The translations under genes were made by a program, and so were the position numbers. Of a stretch of 64,000 nucleotides of DNA, positions 10,637-38,950 are shown piece after piece; positions within the stretch are counted from its first letter, which is position 1, and each line of letters begins with the position of its first letter. Source of the stretch: Escherichia phage ECp13. The stretch is from sequence record PP274704.1, one strand, 5' to 3'. Below the pieces are notes generated by a model. The model saw only the letters and a program-made list of their open reading frames with translations, ran no database searches and was not told the DNA's origin.

Positions 10637-10721
10637 GAATTATTTGTTATTATTAACTCATATCGCACTGATTAATACCCTCTATCATCAAGGGTTCTTG
10701 TTTGAGAGCCTTTGTTAATAA

Positions 10722-10781
10722 TTTTGGTAGAGCGCCTGATTTGGGATCAGGAGGTCCAAGGTTCAAATCCTTGTATGGAGA
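10722..10781 (+). tRNA. tRNA-Pro-like fragment (anticodon UGG), 5' part not foldable
   Basis: Perfect anticodon arm CCTGA/TTTGGGA/TCAGG and T-arm CAAGG/TTCAAAT/CCTTG, but no D-stem or acceptor 5' strand upstream. Confidence 0.3.
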
Positions 10782-10783
10782 CT

Positions 10784-10883
10784 GGAGGCGTGGCAGAGTG
10801 GTTTAATGCACCGGTCTTGAAAACCGGCAGTCGCTCCGGCGACTCATACTAGGTCGTAGGTTCGATCCCTACTGCCTCGACCA
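10784..10883 (+). tRNA. tRNA-Ser-like (anticodon UGA) with encoded CCA, atypically long variable region
   Basis: Acceptor GGAGGCG, anticodon arm CCGGT/CTTGAAA/ACCGG, T-arm GTAGG/TTCGATC/CCTAC, 3' ACCA; about 10 extra nt before T-stem. Confidence 0.45.
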
Positions 10884-11195
10884 AACAAGAAACCGGGTCG
10901 CTACCGGTAAGTCGTCGGACTGATGTTCCCTGGAGTATAGTTCCTCCCACAGTTTTACTGTGTTCTGGTTCTTTACTATCACAGCTGAAACGGCGCACCG
11001 AATTATCGATTCGAGGAAATATCTTTGCCGTAAGCCGAGTAGCGTTTTTGACGGAACGTTCGGATATGGTCGAGATATGGCCTTTTAAAAATATTGAGTA
11101 GCGTCAACTGCTTAATAACCGGGTTCGAATCCCGGCGTTTCGTACAAACACTTGCCTTAGCAGGTGGAACCCCGACAAGGTTGCCGCAAGGCTTA
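10884..11195 (+). ncRNA. structured non-coding region of the tRNA cluster (possible small stable RNAs)
   Basis: No ORF; multiple hairpins; tRNA-like T-arm CCGGG/TTCGAAT/CCCGG at 11119-11135 with a pairing acceptor stem; T4 encodes small stable RNAs here. Confidence 0.25.
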
Positions 11196-11222
11196 GCCCC
11201 GACCGAAAGGTTGGGGCTTTTT
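11196..11222 (+). terminator. intrinsic terminator hairpin
   Basis: CCCCGACC-GAAA-GGTTGGGG followed by CTTTTT. Confidence 0.6.
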
Positions 11223-11224
11223 AG

Positions 11225-11232
11225 TATAAATA
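11225..11232 (+). promoter_or_regulatory. late promoter TATAAATA
   Basis: Exact TATAAATA 40 bp upstream of the IP-like gene at 11273. Confidence 0.55.
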
Positions 11233-11272
11233 TAGTAGTATATTAAATCCACGAATTAAAACAGGAAATAAG

Positions 11273-11746
11273 ATGAAATCATATGCTCAATTTTTAAATG
11301 AAGCGGTGTTAAATGAAGCATCTAGCACCGAAATTCAAGCCGTCGCAAAAGCAGCCATTGCAGCGGGTAAATATTCCTATAAAGATGCTTCTGACGAATC
11401 ACGATTCCAATTTGCTCGCGACATGAAAGCAGAAGGATTTACGGGAAATGCGGTTAGTATGGCCTGGAAAAGTCTAGTTGCTACTGGCGCTGCTTTTGCA
11501 AAGGCTTCGGGTAAACCTGCTCCTAAAGCAGATCCTAAAGCTGCACAAGAAAAAAATATCGTTAAAGGAATTATCGCTAAATATGAAGCTATCCTTAAAG
11601 AGCTTTTAGTAATCAAAACCGAAGGCCAAAAGTTAGCCCGTGCTTATAGTTTCAAAGATAATCCACATGTTCACTCTCTTGAGTATGTTGAAGACATTCA
11701 AAAAATTATTAAAGACCGCATTTGGTCTGCTAAACAAATCAAATAA
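11273..11746 (+). CDS. internal-protein-like protein with capsid targeting sequence
   Basis: 157 aa; N-terminus MKSYAQFLNEAVLNE; late promoter upstream; flanked by near-identical hairpins. Confidence 0.65.
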   Translation: MKSYAQFLNEAVLNEASSTEIQAVAKAAIAAGKYSYKDASDESRFQFARDMKAEGFTGNAVSMAWKSLVATGAAFAKASGKPAPKADPKAAQEKNIVKGIIAKYEAILKELLVIKTEGQKLARAYSFKDNPHVHSLEYVEDIQKIIKDRIWSAKQIK

Positions 11747-16348: not shown

Positions 16349-16765
16349 ATGACTCGTATTAATTTGACTTTAGTATCTGAACTTGCTGATCAACATTTAA
16401 TCGCAGAATACCGTGAACTGCCGCGTGTTTTTGGTATAGTTCGTAAACATGTTGCAAATGGTAAGCGGGTTAAAGATTTTAAAATATCTTCCGAGTTTAT
16501 TTTAGGTTCTGGTCATGTCACGTTCTTTTACGATAAGTTAGAATTTTTGCGAAAGCGTCAATCAGACATTATAACGGAATGCTTAAAACGTGGGTTCAGT
16601 ATAAAAGATACTGAAGTTCCTGACATCAGCGATATTCCAGCAGAATGGAAAAATGATTATAATCCATGCAAATCAGCTATTAAATTGAGCCAACAACGAC
16701 TCGATGAAAAAATTTTAATGAAGCCATACTGGTATAAATACTACGGTAAAACTATTTACATTTAA
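16349..16765 (+). CDS. denV: endonuclease V (pyrimidine dimer DNA glycosylase)
   Basis: 138 aa; [17 protein letters not shown]...YRELPRVFG clearly homologous to T4 endo V but diverged. Confidence 0.92.
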
Positions 16766-16774
16766 AGGAAACAC

Positions 16775-17248
16775 ATGAAAACATATCAAGAATTTATCAC
16801 TGAAGCAGCTATTAATTCTCAAATTATCGCTGAATCTTTTATTGATCTTTTGAAATTTAAAAAAGGTCAAAAAATCACTGCTGTATTGGATGATGGTACA
16901 GAAGTTGAGATGGATGTACAGGGATATAATTATGCAGTAGATGGAAAACTGTATAATAAATCTCATGCTAAATTTGATTCATTTGACGATTTTGTTAATA
17001 CAGTTGAAGATGAAAAAACTCGTAGATCCATTGCAACTGGCGACGCTAAGGTTCTTATGGCACATGGTCATGAACGTATCCGCGCGAAGCAGAATAAAAT
17101 GGGTGAAGATAATTTTGCATTAGTTGGTTATCAATCTGGTAAACAAACTTATGGTTATCAGCGTACTGCTACCATGTATAACAAAAATGGTAAAATCGCT
17201 TTCGTGAATAGCAAAGGTTCTATTCAGTACGTCAAATCATTCAAATAA
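16775..17248 (+). CDS. internal-protein-like protein with capsid targeting sequence
   Basis: 157 aa; N-terminus MKTYQEFITEAAINS matches the recalled T4 IP targeting sequence MKTYQEFIAEA. Confidence 0.65.
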   Translation: MKTYQEFITEAAINSQIIAESFIDLLKFKKGQKITAVLDDGTEVEMDVQGYNYAVDGKLYNKSHAKFDSFDDFVNTVEDEKTRRSIATGDAKVLMAHGHERIRAKQNKMGEDNFALVGYQSGKQTYGYQRTATMYNKNGKIAFVNSKGSIQYVKSFK

Positions 17249-17353: not shown

Positions 17354-17941
17354 ATGGACAATTCATGCGCCATGGAATGGCCCAAATTTAGAGAGAATAA
17401 AATGAGAACATTTTTAACTGGTCCTTATCTATCCCTGATGAATGCTTTTACATACCATTCTGATGCTAGAGTAGAAGAAATTTGTAAAAACGATTATATC
17501 CTACCATTTGAAGACTTACTCAAACAGTATTGCACACTTCGACTAGATGGTGGACGTCAATCCGGTAAATCAACTGCTGTGACTAACTTTGCTGCTAATT
17601 GGCTGTATGATGGTGGAACAGTTATTGTTCTTTCTAATACTTCAGCTTACGCTAAAATTTCTGCAGGCCACATTAAAAAAGAATTTTCTCGTTATTCTAG
17701 TGACGATATTCGATTCCGCTTATTTACTGATTCTGTCCGTAGTTTTGTTGGTAATAGAGGCAGCAAGTTCAGAGGTTTATCGCTTTCGCGGATTTTGTAT
17801 ATAATCGATGAGCCGGTTAAATCTCCCGATATGGATAAAATTTACGATATTCATATTGAAACTGTACAATACTGTTGCAATAGTAAATGTTGCACTGGTG
17901 GTATTACTCGTCCGCAGTTTTTCGTAATCGGAATGCAATGA
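17354..17941 (+). CDS. P-loop NTPase-like protein
   Basis: Walker A-like GGRQSGKST; start uncertain (in-frame ATGs at 17354, 17372, 17402). Confidence 0.5.
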   Translation: MDNSCAMEWPKFRENKMRTFLTGPYLSLMNAFTYHSDARVEEICKNDYILPFEDLLKQYCTLRLDGGRQSGKSTAVTNFAANWLYDGGTVIVLSNTSAYAKISAGHIKKEFSRYSSDDIRFRLFTDSVRSFVGNRGSKFRGLSLSRILYIIDEPVKSPDMDKIYDIHIETVQYCCNSKCCTGGITRPQFFVIGMQ

Positions 17942-18267
17942 TGACAGACACACAGCTTTTCGAATATCTTTATTTTTCGCCAAAAACTATTAAAAATAAA
18001 TTGGTGAATCATTTTGAAATTTTGGCAAATAACAACGTCTTGAGCGAATTTTATCCTAAGCAATACAAATTACAAAAAGGTGTATTCAAAGGATGCAGAG
18101 TTTTGTGTACTGCTCCTAATGCAAGATTAATGAATAAAATTCCATATTTTACCATGGAATTTATTGATGGACCTTTTAAAGGACTAATCACCCAAAGTTT
18201 AATGGCATATGATTCTGAGCCATTTTTAATTAAAGAACAGTCTTGGATAAATTTATTTTCTAATTGA
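17938..18267 (+). CDS. hypothetical protein
   Basis: ATG overlapping preceding stop (ATGATGA); 109 aa. Confidence 0.45.
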   Translation: MMTDTQLFEYLYFSPKTIKNKLVNHFEILANNNVLSEFYPKQYKLQKGVFKGCRVLCTAPNARLMNKIPYFTMEFIDGPFKGLITQSLMAYDSEPFLIKEQSWINLFSN

Positions 18268-18273
18268 GGTTAT

Positions 18274-18636
18274 ATGAAAGCATATCAAATTCTTGAAGGC
18301 ACACATAAAGGTACTATTTATTTTGAAGATGGTATTCAAGCACGAATTATTGTTTCTAAAACCTTTAAAGAGGACTCTTTTGTAGACCCAGAAATTTTCT
18401 ACGGTTTGCACACCCGTGAAATTGAAATTGAACCACAGCCTACAGTTAAAATTGAAGGTGGTCAGCACCTGAACGTTAACGTTCTGCGTCGTGAAACTCT
18501 GGAAGATGCAGTTAAGCATCCGGAAAAATATCCGCAGCTGACCATCCGTGTATCCGGTTATGCAGTTCGCTTTAACTCTCTGACTCCGGAACAGCAGCGC
18601 GACGTTATCGCTCGTACCTTTACTGAGAGCTTGTAA
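18274..18636 (+). CDS. autonomous glycyl radical cofactor (GrcA/YfiD-like, T4 Y06I-like)
   Basis: 120 aa; C-terminal glycyl-radical motif [25 protein letters not shown]; GC-rich host-like codons in the 3' half. Confidence 0.75.
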
Positions 18637-18857
18637 TGGCAAAGATAATTATTGAAGGTTCTAAAGATGTGTTAAATGCTTTCGCCGAATGGTTTAGTAA
18701 TTCAGGCGAACAGCAATTTAATGAAGCGTGGACCATGGGTGATATTGATGGAATTTATCCTACGACAGAAATTTCTGTTCAAGGATATGGCATTCATGAA
18801 CCTATTCGTTTAGTTGAATATGATTTATGTACTGGTGAGGAAGTCAAATATGATTGA
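18636..18857 (+). CDS. hypothetical protein
   Basis: 73 aa; start overlaps preceding stop (TAATG). Confidence 0.5.
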   Translation: MAKIIIEGSKDVLNAFAEWFSNSGEQQFNEAWTMGDIDGIYPTTEISVQGYGIHEPIRLVEYDLCTGEEVKYD

Positions 18858-19116
18858 AGATATTAAAGGTTATAAGCCACATACTGAAGAGAAAATTGGT
18901 AAAGTGAATGCTATCAAAGATGCTGAAGTTCGTTTAGGACTTATCTTTGACGCTTTATACGATGAATTCTGGGAAGCACTGGATAATTGTGAAGACTGTG
19001 AATTCGCGAAGAATTATGCTGAAAGCCTCGATCAGTTAACTATTGCTAAAACGAAACTCAAAGAAGCCAGTATGTGGGCTTGTCGTGCTGTGTTCCAACC
19101 AGAGGAAAAATATTAA
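18850..19116 (+). CDS. hypothetical protein
   Basis: 88 aa from ATG at 18850, overlapping preceding stop. Confidence 0.5.
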
Positions 19117-19394
19117 TGGCTCAATTAAGCGCAGGGTTTGGTTATGAGTATTATACTGCCCCTCGTCGTGTATCTGTTGCTCCTAAGAAAATTCAAAGTC
19201 TTGATGACTTCCAGGAAGTAGTCCGTAAAGCTTTCCAGGACTATGCGCGTTATCTTAAAGAAGATTCACAGGACTGTCTAGAAGAAGATGAAATTGCTTA
19301 CTATGAGCAGCGTCTTGAACAGCTTAAAAACCTACATGAGGTTCGTGCAGAAGTTACAAAGTCTATGAATAAATTGATTAGATTTAAAGAATAA
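19116..19394 (+). CDS. hypothetical protein
   Basis: 92 aa from ATG at 19116, overlapping preceding stop. Confidence 0.5.
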
Positions 19395-19453: not shown

Positions 19454-19915
19454 ATGACTATCAATACAGAAGTTTTTATCCGTCGAAATAAGCTTCGTCG
19501 TCACTTTGAGTCGGAGTTTCGTCAAATTAACAATGAGATTCGTGAGGCATCAAAAGCAGCAGGAGTCTCATCGTTTCATCTAAAATATTCTCAGCATCTT
19601 CTTGATCGTGCAATTCAACGGGAGATTGATGAGACATATGTTTTTGAATTATTCCACAAAATAAAAGACCATGTTTTAGAAGTTAATGAATTCCTGAGTA
19701 TGCCTCCGCGTCCTGATATTGACGAGGATTTTATTGATGGGGTTGAATATCGTCCTGGACGTTTAGAAATCACAGATGGAAATCTTTGGCTTGGATTTAC
19801 GGTTTGTAAACCTAATGCGAAGTTCAAAGACCCGTCGCTTCAATGTAGGATGGCAATTATCAACAGTCGTCGTTTACCAGGAAAGGCTTCTAAAGCAGTA
19901 ATTAAAACTCAATGA
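19454..19915 (+). CDS. regB: site-specific endoribonuclease RegB
   Basis: 153 aa; sequence and length match recalled T4 RegB. Confidence 0.88.
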   Translation: MTINTEVFIRRNKLRRHFESEFRQINNEIREASKAAGVSSFHLKYSQHLLDRAIQREIDETYVFELFHKIKDHVLEVNEFLSMPPRPDIDEDFIDGVEYRPGRLEITDGNLWLGFTVCKPNAKFKDPSLQCRMAIINSRRLPGKASKAVIKTQ

Positions 19916-19922
19916 GGTAAGC

Positions 19923-20468
19923 ATGAGAAAAGCACTACTCGCTGGTCTATTGGCCATTTCTATGATGGCACATAGCTCCGAGCATACTTTCAGTAATGTC
20001 CAACTCGATAACATGCGTTACGCATATCAATTCGGGGAACAATTTTCTAAGGATGGAAAATATAAAACACACAAAAATATCCACAAGAGCGGATTAGGTC
20101 ATATAATGGCTGCTATTTTATGGCAAGAAAGCTCTGCCGGAGTTAATTTAAAATCTAAACCAAAGCATCATGCCTACGGAATGTTCCAAAATTATTTGCC
20201 GACCATGCGAGCAAGAGTTAAGGAACTTGGTTATAATATGACCGATGCTGAAATAAAAAGAATGTTGAATAAACGGTCCAATTCAGCTTCCTGGGCGTAC
20301 ATTGAACTTTCTTATTGGTTAAATATACATAAGGGAGATATAAGAAAGGCGATATCCTCTTATAATTCGGGATGGAACGTTAAAGCAGGTTCTAAATATG
20401 CTTCTGAAGTCCTAGAAAAGGCTAATTACCTTAAAAATAATAAACTTTTGGAAATAGTAAATGACTAA
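19923..20468 (+). CDS. secreted lytic-transglycosylase-like (SLT-domain) protein
   Basis: N-terminal signal peptide; motif ESSAG...YGMFQ resembles the SLT catalytic ES...GLMQ. Confidence 0.55.
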   Translation: MRKALLAGLLAISMMAHSSEHTFSNVQLDNMRYAYQFGEQFSKDGKYKTHKNIHKSGLGHIMAAILWQESSAGVNLKSKPKHHAYGMFQNYLPTMRARVKELGYNMTDAEIKRMLNKRSNSASWAYIELSYWLNIHKGDIRKAISSYNSGWNVKAGSKYASEVLEKANYLKNNKLLEIVND

Positions 20469-27553: not shown

Positions 27554-27580
27554 GGGAGCCTTCGGGCTCCCTTTTTATTT
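27554..27580 (+). terminator. intrinsic terminator
   Basis: GGGAGCC-TTCG-GGCTCCC followed by TTTTTATTT. Confidence 0.7.
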
Positions 27581-27600
27581 CAAAATTTTTTCACAAAACG

Positions 27601-27630
27601 GTTTACAAGCATAAAGCTTTATGGTACTAT
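27601..27630 (+). promoter_or_regulatory. early promoter
   Basis: -35 GTTTACA, 17 bp, -10 TACTAT; shares leader with the 11.9k, 29.0k and 53.7k promoters. Confidence 0.6.
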
Positions 27631-36166: not shown

Positions 36167-36196
36167 CCTTATCTATTCAAGGTAAGGGTTTTATTA
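36167..36196 (+). promoter_or_regulatory. hairpin over the gene 49 translation initiation region
   Basis: CCCTTA / TAAGGG 6-bp stem overlapping the RBS just before the ATG at 36196. Confidence 0.4.
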
Positions 36197-36669
36197 TGTT
36201 ATTGACTGGCAAATTATACAAAGAAGAAAAACAAAAATTTTATAATGCACAAAATGGTAAATGCTTAATTTGCCAACGAGAACTAAATCCTGATGTTCAA
36301 GCTAATCACCTTGACCATGACCATGAATTAAATGGACCAAAAGCAGGAAAGGTACGTGGATTGCTCTGTAATCTTTGCAATGCAGCGGAAGGTCAAATGA
36401 AGCATAAATTTAATCGTTCTGGCTTAAAGGGACAAGGTGTTGATTATCTTGAATGGTTAGAAAATTTACTTACTTATTTAAAATCCGATTACACCCAAAA
36501 TAATATTCACCCTAACTTCGTTGGAGATAAATCAAAGGAATTTTCTCGTTTAGGAAAAGAGGAAATGATGGCTGAGATGCTTCAAAGAGGATTTGAATAT
36601 AATGAATCTGACACCAAAACACAATTAATAGCTTCATTTAAGAAGCAGCTTAGAAAGAGTTTAAAATGA
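36196..36669 (+). CDS. 49: endonuclease VII (Holliday junction resolvase)
   Basis: 157 aa; MLLTGKLYKEEKQKFYNAQNGKCLICQREL... matches recalled T4 gp49. Confidence 0.92.
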   Translation: MLLTGKLYKEEKQKFYNAQNGKCLICQRELNPDVQANHLDHDHELNGPKAGKVRGLLCNLCNAAEGQMKHKFNRSGLKGQGVDYLEWLENLLTYLKSDYTQNNIHPNFVGDKSKEFSRLGKEEMMAEMLQRGFEYNESDTKTQLIASFKKQLRKSLK

Positions 36670-38483
36670 CAATTGAAAAAGAAATTGAAGGATTGATTCA
36701 TAAAACTAATAAAGACCTTTTAAACGAGAATGCTAATAAAGATTCTCGTGTTTTTCCAACTCAACGGGACCTTATGGCTGGTATTGTGTCTAAACACATT
36801 GCCAAAAATATGGTCCCGTCTTTTATTATGAAAGCGCATGAAAGCGGAATTATTCATTTCCATGATATTGATTATTCCCCTGCTCTTCCATTTACTAATT
36901 GCTGTTTAGTAGATTTAAAAGGAATGCTTGAGAACGGATTTAAGCTCGGTAATGCGCAGATTGAAACTCCTAAATCAATCGGCGTTGCTACTGCAATTAT
37001 GGCACAAATTACTGCGCAGGTTGCTTCTCATCAATATGGCGGAACGACTTTTGCGAATGTAGATAAAGTACTTTCTCCTTATGTTAAACGCACCTATGCA
37101 AAACATATTGAGGATGCAGAAAAATGGCAAATCGCTGATGCGTTGAATTACGCCCAGTCTAAAACAGAAAAAGACGTATACGATGCATTCCAAGCTTATG
37201 AATATGAAGTAAATACTCTCTTTAGTTCAAACGGACAAACACCTTTTGTAACAATTACGTTTGGTACGGGAACTGACTGGACTGAACGAATGATTCAGAA
37301 AGCAATTCTGAAAAATCGTATTAAAGGCCTTGGTCGCGATGGGATAACTCCTATTTTCCCTAAGCTTGTTATGTTCGTTGAAGAGGGCGTCAATCTTTAT
37401 AAAGATGATCCGAACTATGATATTAAGCAGCTTGCTCTAGAGTGTGCAAGCAAAAGAATGTATCCTGATATTATTTCAGCTAAGAATAATAAAGCTATCA
37501 CCGGTTCATCTGTTCCTGTTTCTCCAATGGGTTGCCGCAGTTTCTTGAGTGTATGGAAAGATTCGACTGGTAATGAAATTCTTGATGGACGTAATAATCT
37601 TGGCGTTGTAACACTGAATCTTCCTCGCATTGCACTAGATTCTTATATTGGAACACAGTTCAATGAACAGAAATTTGCCGAATTGTTCAATGAACGAATG
37701 GATTTGTGTTTTGAAGCTTTGATGTGTAGAATTAGTTCCTTAAAAGGAGTTAAAGCGACTGTTGCTCCTATTCTTTACCAAGAAGGTGCATTCGGGGTTC
37801 GTCTTAAACCTGATGATGACATAATTGAGTTATTTAAAAACGGTAGAAGTTCAGTGTCTTTAGGATACATTGGTATTCACGAATTGAATATTCTTGTCGG
37901 TCGTGATATTGGACAGGAAATTTTAACTAAAATGAATGCTCGTCTTAAGCAGTGGACTGAAAGAACCGGTTTTGCTTTTAGCTTGTATTCTACTCCTGCT
38001 GAAAACCTTTGCTATCGCTTCTGTAAACTTGATACTGAAAAATATGGAAGTGTAAAAGATGTTACTGATAAAGGCTGGTACACTAATAGTTTCCATGTTT
38101 CAGTAGAAGAAAATATTACTCCATTTGAAAAGATTTCCCGCGAAGCTCCATATCATTTCATTGCGACAGGTGGTCACATTTCTTATGTTGAACTTCCTGA
38201 TATGAAAAATAACCTAAAAGGTCTTGAGGCTGTATGGGATTATGCTGCACAGCATTTAGATTATTTTGGCGTTAATATGCCAGTAGATAAGTGTTTTACA
38301 TGCGGAAGTACACATGAAATGACTCCTACTGAAAACGGATTTGTTTGTTCTATTTGTGGAGAAACTGATCCTAAAAAGATGAACACAATAAGAAGAACTT
38401 GTGGTTATTTGGGAAATCCGAATGAACGCGGATTTAATCTCGGCAAAAATAAAGAAATCATGCATAGGGTTAAACACCAATGA
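36666..38483 (+). CDS. nrdD: anaerobic ribonucleotide reductase NrdD (intronless)
   Basis: Continuous 605-aa ORF; length matches spliced T4 NrdD. Confidence 0.92.
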   Translation: MTIEKEIEGLIHKTNKDLLNENANKDSRVFPTQRDLMAGIVSKHIAKNMVPSFIMKAHESGIIHFHDIDYSPALPFTNCCLVDLKGMLENGFKLGNAQIETPKSIGVATAIMAQITAQVASHQYGGTTFANVDKVLSPYVKRTYAKHIEDAEKWQIADALNYAQSKTEKDVYDAFQAYEYEVNTLFSSNGQTPFVTITFGTGTDWTERMIQKAILKNRIKGLGRDGITPIFPKLVMFVEEGVNLYKDDPNYDIKQLALECASKRMYPDIISAKNNKAITGSSVPVSPMGCRSFLSVWKDSTGNEILDGRNNLGVVTLNLPRIALDSYIGTQFNEQKFAELFNERMDLCFEALMCRISSLKGVKATVAPILYQEGAFGVRLKPDDDIIELFKNGRSSVSLGYIGIHELNILVGRDIGQEILTKMNARLKQWTERTGFAFSLYSTPAENLCYRFCKLDTEKYGSVKDVTDKGWYTNSFHVSVEENITPFEKISREAPYHFIATGGHISYVELPDMKNNLKGLEAVWDYAAQHLDYFGVNMPVDKCFTCGSTHEMTPTENGFVCSICGETDPKKMNTIRRTCGYLGNPNERGFNLGKNKEIMHRVKHQ

Positions 38484-38950
38484 ATTATGATAGATTTTAT
38501 CCTTGCGATTTTGTGAATGGCCCTGGATGCAGGGTCGTTCTTTTCGTTACGGGGTGTTTGCATAAATGCGAAGGGTGTTATAATAAATCAACATGGAATG
38601 CTAGAAATGGCGTTCCATTCACTGGTGAAACACTAGAACAATTAATTGAATGTTTGAATAATGATTATATAGAAGGATTAACTATAACTGGAGGAGACCC
38701 TCTCTATCCTGATAACCGAGATGCTGTTCATTGCATTGTTCAAACAGTAAAAAATCTTTATCCAAATAAAAGCATTTGGTTGTGGACAGGATATAAGTTT
38801 GAAGATATTAAACAACTAGAAATGCTTAAATATGTTGATGTTATTATTGATGGGAAGTATGAGAAAAATCTTCCGACCAAAAAGCTGTGGCGAGGATCAG
38901 ATAATCAGCGACTTTGGTCAAATACCGATGGGGTGTGGAAACATGATTAA
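38480..38950 (+). CDS. nrdG: anaerobic RNR activating protein NrdG
   Basis: 156 aa; radical-SAM-like Cys cluster CLHKCEGC; ATGA overlap with nrdD. Confidence 0.9.
   Translation: MNYDRFYPCDFVNGPGCRVVLFVTGCLHKCEGCYNKSTWNARNGVPFTGETLEQLIECLNNDYIEGLTITGGDPLYPDNRDAVHCIVQTVKNLYPNKSIWLWTGYKFEDIKQLEMLKYVDVIIDGKYEKNLPTKKLWRGSDNQRLWSNTDGVWKHD

Follow-up and report, generated by a model that had tools for sequence, protein, structure and literature searches.

Gene vs.6 of bacteriophage T4 and its relatives encodes a glycyl radical protein of the same kind as Escherichia coli GrcA (YfiD). We analysed the copy of this gene at positions 18274–18636 of a 64,000-nt stretch of DNA from Escherichia phage ECp13 (PP274704.1), here called the window. 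In the older literature, the T4 protein is named Y06I. YfiD and Y06I are both activated by the activase of pyruvate formate-lyase (PFL), and PFL that has been cut by O2 at Gly734 regains activity with either of them (Wagner et al. 2001, PMID 11444864, as summarised in PMC8683613). They are the sole two validated spare-part proteins (PMC8683613). In lytic T4-like marine cyanophages, mosaic segments of psbA have been exchanged with host genes (Sullivan et al. 2006, PMC1484495). Gene and biochemical role of vs.6 are thus already known for T4, and annotating it in ECp13 adds nothing new. The value of the locus lies in its evolutionary pattern, a clean and quantifiable one that points to chromosomal DNA repeatedly entering phages of the virulent T4-like kind at one defined site of 175 nt.

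The coding sequence (CDS) of vs.6 (18274–18636, + strand; 120 amino acids plus stop in the list of open reading frames, ORFs) is made of two compositionally different parts. The 5′ half (18274–18451, + strand), comprising codons 1–59 and the first base of codon 60, is AT-rich and of phage type, with a G+C content (GC) of 0.337 versus 0.492 for 18452–18636. Segments of 185 nt across the window had a mean GC of 0.350 (standard deviation 0.042), and 18452–18636 was in the top 0.34%. At third codon positions, GC increased from 0.20 in codons 1–59 to 0.46 in codons 60–120. In the 3′ half, leucine was encoded by CTG in five of six cases, proline by CCG in three of three and glutamine by CAG in four of four; the respective shares in the phage's long ORFs, which served as the codon reference, were 8%, 15% and 35%. 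The log-likelihood of the 3′ half under the phage's synonymous usage (z = −2.4) fell in the lowest 1.3% of 61-codon segments. A maximum chi-square comparison with E. coli grcA put the breakpoint at 18452 (χ2 = 131.5). The original prediction, made from the letters alone, had described a GC-rich 3′ half with E. coli-preferred codons and had proposed an analysis of GC and codon usage. That analysis confirmed the step (GC 0.34 to 0.49, with CTG, CCG and CAG dominant) and found no uniform composition across the gene. The break itself stood, but its predicted position near 18440 had to be corrected to the junction at 18452.

Downstream of this junction, 175 of 175 nt (18452–18626, + strand) were identical to E. 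coli grcA. The host-identical tract covers residues 61–117 with flanking bases and encodes a PFL-type glycyl radical domain. The remaining 3′ end (18627–18636, + strand) is phage-specific and departs from the E. coli sequence at two synonymous positions (18627, GAG instead of GAA; 18631, TTG instead of CTG); similarity to E. coli grcA stops downstream of vs.6. Pairwise alignment of 18274–18451 with E. coli grcA gave 81 identical positions out of 178 (45.5%). With blastn, 18452–18636 matched grcA in 5,426 of 5,426 complete E. coli genomes (98.9% over 185 nt), and the nucleotide search that had been proposed along with the prediction was thus decisive. In a megablast search of the rest of the 64-kb window against E. 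coli genomes, no match was found except 51 nt in one strain. In that segment (27569–27619; 94% identity, single strain BE104), promoter-like sequence comes after a GC-rich hairpin that has a T-run (GGGAGCCTTCGGGCTCCCTTTTT); BE104 has probably acquired it by engineering or from a phage.

We compared grcA from 80 species of Enterobacterales and Pasteurellales with vs.6 from a range of phages over a 171-nt block (EGGQH to RTFT). The C-terminal domains of the bacterial GrcA proteins were near-invariant in amino acid sequence, while their nucleotide sequences differed by 7–16% from E. coli. The number of differences from E. coli grcA over the block was 0 for ECp13, 1 for RB14, 1 for ESh27, 2 for T4 and 5 for O157 typing phage 3. 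It was 3 for another Escherichia species, 12 for Citrobacter and >15 for the other bacteria sampled. Since the genes of other species differ while encoding an identical protein, the synonymous sites in the tract are free to vary; identity to E. coli specifically at such sites therefore indicates a recent exchange with E. coli. We are almost certain that the 3′ half of vs.6 is recent host DNA. The transfer ran from host to phage, because grcA lies in a conserved ung–grcA locus, tracks the relationships of bacterial species and has host composition. Transfer from phage to host was ruled out, as bacterial grcA is syntenic (ung–grcA) and follows the species tree.

The 5′ half has a different history. 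In a single BLASTP comparison, the N-terminal half of Vs.6 matched GrcA residues 28–66 with 13 of 39 identical residues (33%, E = 2e-5), a weak but specific match that includes an ARxIVxK...ED...RE motif. Judged by this match and by the alignment of the GrcA model TIGR04365 to residues 20–120, phage vs.6 is a full-length but old grcA homolog, whose 5′ half is old, vertically inherited in Tevenvirinae and distantly homologous to the GrcA N-terminus. A host domain fused onto an unrelated N-terminus was ruled out by the same BLASTP match. The earlier suggestion of a recent capture of a host glycyl radical domain was supported as to the host DNA (175/175 nt) and needs one refinement: the gene is not a one-off capture onto an unrelated protein, the 5′ half being itself a diverged GrcA N-terminus and the 3′ half apparently overwritten repeatedly by the grcA of the resident host.

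Comparison with other phage genera revealed the same discordance. Between ECp13 and Mosigvirus, nucleotide identity was about 70% in the flanking genes vs.7 and vs.5, about 88% in the 5′ half of vs.6 and 97–99.4% in the 3′ half. The 5′ half of ECp13 was 72–73% identical to that of Jiaodavirus. The synonymous divergence (dS, Nei–Gojobori) between ECp13 and Mosigvirus was 0.40–0.50 in the 5′ half and 0.02–0.12 in the 3′ half (Fisher p = 0.0003–0.008). For RB14 and a Mosigvirus contig, the corresponding values were 0.39 and 0.0. No genus-specific substitutions were found inside the tract among the phages compared; most differences there were singletons private to one phage, scattered about the sequence of E. 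coli. By contrast, the variants in the terminal codons are genus-specific among phages and were therefore placed outside the converted tract. The only common variant within the tract concerns Gln63, where CAA and CAG are alleles that segregate in E. coli. One of them is present in ECp13 and its counterpart in RB14, ESh27 and further phages; over 175 nt, both types of tract have 100% matches among real E. coli genomes. For the RB14-type tract, 18 of the 39 E. coli grcA matches listed (an evenly spaced sample of the ranking) were 100% identical over 175 nt.

In Jiaodavirus, which infects Klebsiella, the junction lay at the same codon and GC rose from 0.36 in the 5′ half to 0.56 in the 3′ half. 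The 3′ half of these phages encoded a Klebsiella-type TLLDAVEH signature and was 5–11 nt from K. pneumoniae grcA and 21–24 nt from E. coli grcA. The tract of phage Nispero, whose host is K. aerogenes, was 5 nt from K. pneumoniae grcA. Close relatives within Jiaodavirus diverged more in the 3′ than in the 5′ half (KpV477 vs Roth04: 8/171 vs 0/177), and the tracts were mosaics of variants from different Klebsiella-clade bacteria. A first comparison lacked K. pneumoniae and K. oxytoca, and the Jiaodavirus tracts then looked nearest to Pseudocitrobacter or Raoultella. The grcA genes of K. pneumoniae (CP125156.1) and K. aerogenes (LR134122.1) were recovered from PLSDB. The K. aerogenes gene was excluded from the counts because of an indel, which truncates its annotated CDS. 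Both PLSDB 'plasmids' (CP125156.1, 5.37 Mb; LR134122.1, 0.57 Mb) carry chromosomal grcA and are therefore mislabelled chromosomes or chromosome fragments.

Across phage records, E. coli grcA was matched by 629 at 95–99%, always over grcA nt 200–384 only, and K. pneumoniae grcA by 106 Klebsiella-phage records at 95–99%. Cross-matches between the E. coli and Klebsiella types were 85–88% identical, which equals the divergence between the hosts. The copies in Karamvirus, Krischvirus, T5-like and other phages showed no GC step and were 31–53 nt from every bacterium sampled, like ordinary old phage genes. The vs.6 genes with a junction have a sharp intragenic break with one host-matching segment, and the histories of their segments are discordant, with the host clade as the donor. 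This is the pattern of psbA-type conversion.

Two viral contigs were observed in addition. A Jiaodavirus-like one (IMGVR_UViG_2974754850_000001, 701–1059) has a frameshifted vs.6 5′ half that reduces the ORF to 80 amino acids, and its 3′ half was the nearest of all to K. pneumoniae grcA, with 1 difference in the first ~155 nt. Either the frameshift is an error of sequencing, or the gene is in decay while its 3′ half is still being converted. Its 5′-half distances are meaningless after the frameshift and were disregarded. A 19-kb viral contig (IMGVR_UViG_2706794630_000006) contains a 150-amino acid GrcA-like ORF, the 3′ half of which is 15 nt from Yersinia artesiana grcA. This is a much smaller distance than for most non-Tevenvirinae phage copies, and the ORF may be another case of host tracking.

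The best explanation for these sequence patterns, and one we consider well supported, is recurrent gene conversion from host to phage, in which the 3′ half of vs.6 has probably been converted repeatedly and from different hosts. With less assurance, we propose that ongoing conversion in a strictly lytic, host-DNA-degrading T4-type phage keeps the catalytic half of vs.6 as a running copy of the local host grcA allele, that is, of E. coli in Tequatrovirus and Mosigvirus and of the Klebsiella clade in Jiaodavirus. T4-type phages replicate via recombination and recombine with short homologous DNA in the cell, as in marker rescue and with insertion/substitution vectors. Under our proposal, vs.6 would be an old grcA homolog whose 5′ half has drifted to phage composition, while the 3′ 175 nt would have been overwritten time and again by homologous recombination with the grcA of the infected cell. 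The host-identical tract would offer perfect homology to a single-copy host gene, so that every infection would supply a substrate. Provided that it were converted more often per infection than it mutates, the tract would be locked to the host allele without a need for selection. It could not extend, because the homology is bounded upstream by codon 60 and downstream by the final three codons and vs.5, and its ends would be fixed for the same reason. Selection for fit with host PflA and PflB may contribute, but would not be required because the protein domain hardly varies among hosts.

Several observations weigh against recurrent conversion. The junction is common to all three genera, which a single ancestral event would also leave. 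In the E. coli phages taken alone, spread of a converted tract from phage to phage would look the same as repeated conversion by the host. The tract does not follow the host at once, since Tequatroviruses isolated on Yersinia or Salmonella retain the E. coli tract. Some phages carry 3–7 private substitutions (IME537 has 7 differences). The tract of O157 typing phage 3 was at most 98.3% identical to any E. coli, and at most two of its five substitutions were E. coli polymorphisms. The other three are private to the phage, so not every difference in a tract derives from a host allele. Klebsiella donors were thinly sampled, with one K. pneumoniae allele to which the best phage match was 97%, and the E. 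coli allele argument depends on one polymorphic site. Finally, residues 20–120 of Vs.6 scored 153.4 bits with the GrcA equivalog model TIGR04365 (IPR011140), below its 170-bit cutoff; E. coli GrcA scored 234. The low score results from the diverged N-terminal half.

The alternative that survives best is a small number of captures, one recent from E. coli and one from Klebsiella, followed by spread through phage–phage recombination in co-infection. T4-like phages recombine freely, the tracts of RB14 (Tequatrovirus) and ESh27/IMG103 (Mosigvirus) are identical, and the differences in the tract interior are mostly private singletons, all of which would fit such spread. On the other hand, two distinct E. 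coli alleles are each matched perfectly, the Jiaodavirus tracts are mosaics that match several bacterial alleles, and the variants form a star whose centre is the host sequence itself, from which ECp13 has 0 differences. We therefore regard this alternative as rather unlikely. A single ancient capture of the grcA 3′ half in the common ancestor of Tequatrovirus, Mosigvirus and Jiaodavirus, preserved by strong constraint, would account for the shared junction codon and would be in line with the near-invariance of the encoded domain in bacteria. Yet bacterial genes for identical proteins differ at 7–16% of their nucleotides, so the synonymous sites are not constrained. Moreover, the tracts of E. 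coli phages are E. coli alleles and those of Klebsiella phages are Klebsiella-like, their mutual divergence being that between the hosts (dS about 0.58), and between genera the dS of the 3′ half is >5-fold below that of the 5′ half. On these sequence comparisons, a single capture appears largely refuted already and is very improbable. An artefact has virtually no chance of being the explanation, whether through host reads that contaminated a phage assembly or were used to polish it, or through chimeric assembly. Perfect host identity within a phage contig is a classic signature of contamination, but an artefact was ruled out by recurrence, the same in-frame mosaic and junction being present in >600 independently sequenced phage genomes, the T4 reference included. 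In addition, vs.6 has kept an intact reading frame and its translational coupling to vs.5, and the T4 protein has been expressed and characterised (as summarised in PMC8683613).

The identity of the gene is hardly in doubt. Positions 18274–18636 were 100% identical to Shigella phage Sfk20 and 97–98% identical to T4-like phages in which the gene is annotated as vs.6 or GrcA. T4 vs.6 (NC_000866, 63557–63919; NP_049730) is named "autonomous glycyl radical cofactor GrcA" in RefSeq, and 118 of 120 amino acids are identical between the T4 and ECp13 proteins. With very high confidence, the ECp13 gene is the ortholog of T4 vs.6/GrcA in a Tequatrovirus (T4-like) phage, with a 14-kDa product. A Shine–Dalgarno sequence read from the letters (GAGG, 18266–18269, + strand) lies 4 nt 5′ of the ATG and overlaps the TGA stop codon of vs.7 (18265–18267). 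The TAA stop codon of vs.6 overlaps the ATG of vs.5 (TAATG, 18634–18638; start of vs.5 at 18636). Among the neighbours are denV (16349–16765), regB (19454–19915) and a vs.1-like gene (19923–20468), which together with nrdD and nrdG identify the genome as T4-like. A megablast search with 17800–19200 matched 809 phage records, the best being Sfk20 (99.9%), KNP1/KNP5 and pSs-1, all Tequatrovirus. An antisense ORF that spans all of vs.6 (18253–18642, − strand; 129 amino acids) was unsupported as a gene and probably follows mechanically from the codon composition of vs.6 itself. A scan for promoters and terminators found sites no more frequently than in shuffled sequence.

Vs.6 is a small standalone protein (about 14 kDa) that ends in a glycyl radical domain. 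Residues 61–101 matched Pfam Gly_radical (PF01228) with 66.9 bits (cutoff 22.2). The closest solved structure was E. coli YfiD/GrcA (PDB 6OWR; E = 8e-42, residues 22–120), followed by PFL, with residues 58–120 aligned to PflB 697–759 (E = 5e-26). Residues 60–120 were identical to E. coli GrcA 67–127 at 60 of 61 positions. These matches agree with the original prediction of a GrcA/YfiD-like protein corresponding to T4 Y06I, and the C-terminal sequence reads as given in that prediction. A PFL-type radical motif, RVSGYAV, is present at residues 92–98. By alignment to YfiD (6OWR) and PflB, Gly95 (codon GGT, 18556–18558, + strand) is the predicted glycyl radical site and the counterpart of GrcA Gly102 and PflB Gly734; the radical-site assignment for PFL and YfiD was taken from PMC8683613.

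From orthology and 98% identity to T4 Y06I, we infer that ECp13 Vs.6 rescues O2-cleaved PFL. The host activase PflA would install the radical on Gly95, and activated Vs.6 would dock onto host PFL cleaved by oxygen at Gly734. It would substitute for the lost C-terminal radical domain and restore fermentative production of acetyl-CoA and formate, which presumably sustains energy metabolism in micro-aerobic gut infection after the shut-off of host gene expression. In the T4 reference, vs.6 codon 72 encodes His (CAT); in ECp13, every other phage sampled and all bacteria it encodes Arg (CGT). The biochemically studied Y06I may thus carry a lineage-specific substitution in an otherwise invariant glycyl radical domain.

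Both PFL and the phage's own anaerobic ribonucleotide reductase, NrdD, had been named as possible clients. The phage does encode NrdD and NrdG in the same 64-kb window (nrdD, 36666–38483; nrdG, 38480–38950), as predicted, and an early genome paper suggested a role in nucleotide metabolism from the shared Pfam domain (PMC1524935), the sole genomic comment on vs.6 that we found. The C-terminal domain of Vs.6, however, is identical to that of host GrcA and aligns to PflB 697–759. The radical motif of NrdD (RRTCGYLGNPN) differs in detail from that of Vs.6 (RVSGYAVRF), which has no NrdD-type motif (RRTCGYLG), and NrdD is served by a different activase, NrdG. T4 Y06I has been shown to complement PFL (as summarised in PMC8683613). 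Of the two proposed clients, PFL thus stands, and we see scarcely any likelihood that Vs.6 is a spare part for NrdD instead, given its PFL-type C-terminus. Gene 49, which is endonuclease VII-like, occupies 36196–36669; nrdD encodes 605 uninterrupted amino acids, and NrdG contains CX3CX2C. In T4, nrdD carries a group I intron; ECp13 nrdD reads as a single ORF.

Other features of the window were noted away from vs.6. Two adjacent matches to Rfam tRNA models were found in 10710–10880 (10710–10781, 30.3 bits; 10784–10880, 49.4 bits, 97 nt), and ARAGORN reported zero tRNAs on the 64-kb window. Genes for tRNAs or small RNAs that are degenerate or unusual, and that belong to the T4 tRNA region, may lie here. 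GC in the window is highest (up to 0.55) in a zone at 10749–11523, part of which stems from an Ala/Lys-rich ORF of 157 amino acids (11273–11746, + strand; MKSYAQFLNEAVLNEASSTEIQAV...). Another ORF (16775–17248; MKTYQEFITEAAINSQ...) begins in a similar way, and the two may be paralogous internal-protein-like genes.

Host-specific recurrent conversion of the vs.6 3′ half is apparently undescribed. In a search of the literature on grcA, vs.6 or glycyl radical together with phage, gene conversion or horizontal transfer, the host-tracking mosaic was not found; a mention in Wagner et al. (2001), Miller et al. (2003, PMC150520) or Bowman et al. (2019, PMC6754787) is possible. The vs.6 pattern combines allele-level resolution with host-genus specificity. 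If our explanation is true, the 175-nt tract would be a natural recorder of recent host use and could mark the natural host that a phage has lately infected. It would also provide a ready natural system for measuring the rates of host-to-phage recombination, and a natural assay of how phage DNA recombines with degraded host DNA. The locus calls for caution with tools that treat host-identical DNA in phage contigs as contamination, and it shows that a phage gene can owe the codon usage of a host to continuing conversion and not to a dated transfer event.

Among the known systems, T4 Vs.6/Y06I is closest to ECp13 Vs.6. It shares the gene order denV – vs.8 – vs.7 – vs.6 – vs.5 – ... – regB, and its gene is likewise a mosaic whose 3′ half is of E. 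coli type. The proteins differ at two amino acids, T47A and residue 72 (His in T4, Arg in ECp13), and over the 171-nt block the T4 tract has two differences from E. coli where ECp13 has none. E. coli GrcA (YfiD) is of the same size class and has the same RVSGYAV motif. In contrast, the N-terminal half of Vs.6 is about 33% identical to it over 39 residues, is 7 residues shorter and is without the conserved start of the E. coli protein. Further, vs.6 is transcribed from the phage early region, whereas E. coli grcA is transcribed from the ung–grcA locus. The C-terminal domain of PflB (697–759; PDB 1CM5/2PFL) is the piece lost on O2 cleavage and replaced by the spare part. It is the end of an 85-kDa enzyme, while Vs.6 is a standalone protein of 14 kDa, and the nucleotide identity of vs.6 to pflB is only about 80–83%. 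For the evolutionary process, the closest described analogue is host–phage intragenic recombination in cyanophage psbA. There, psbA is likewise a host-derived metabolic gene in which exchange is visible as breaks in composition and identity (PMC1484495). Unlike psbA, vs.6 belongs to an enterobacterial system and has a short tract (175 nt) with fixed ends that is letter-perfect to the current host species, and only the catalytic-domain half of the gene is exchanged.

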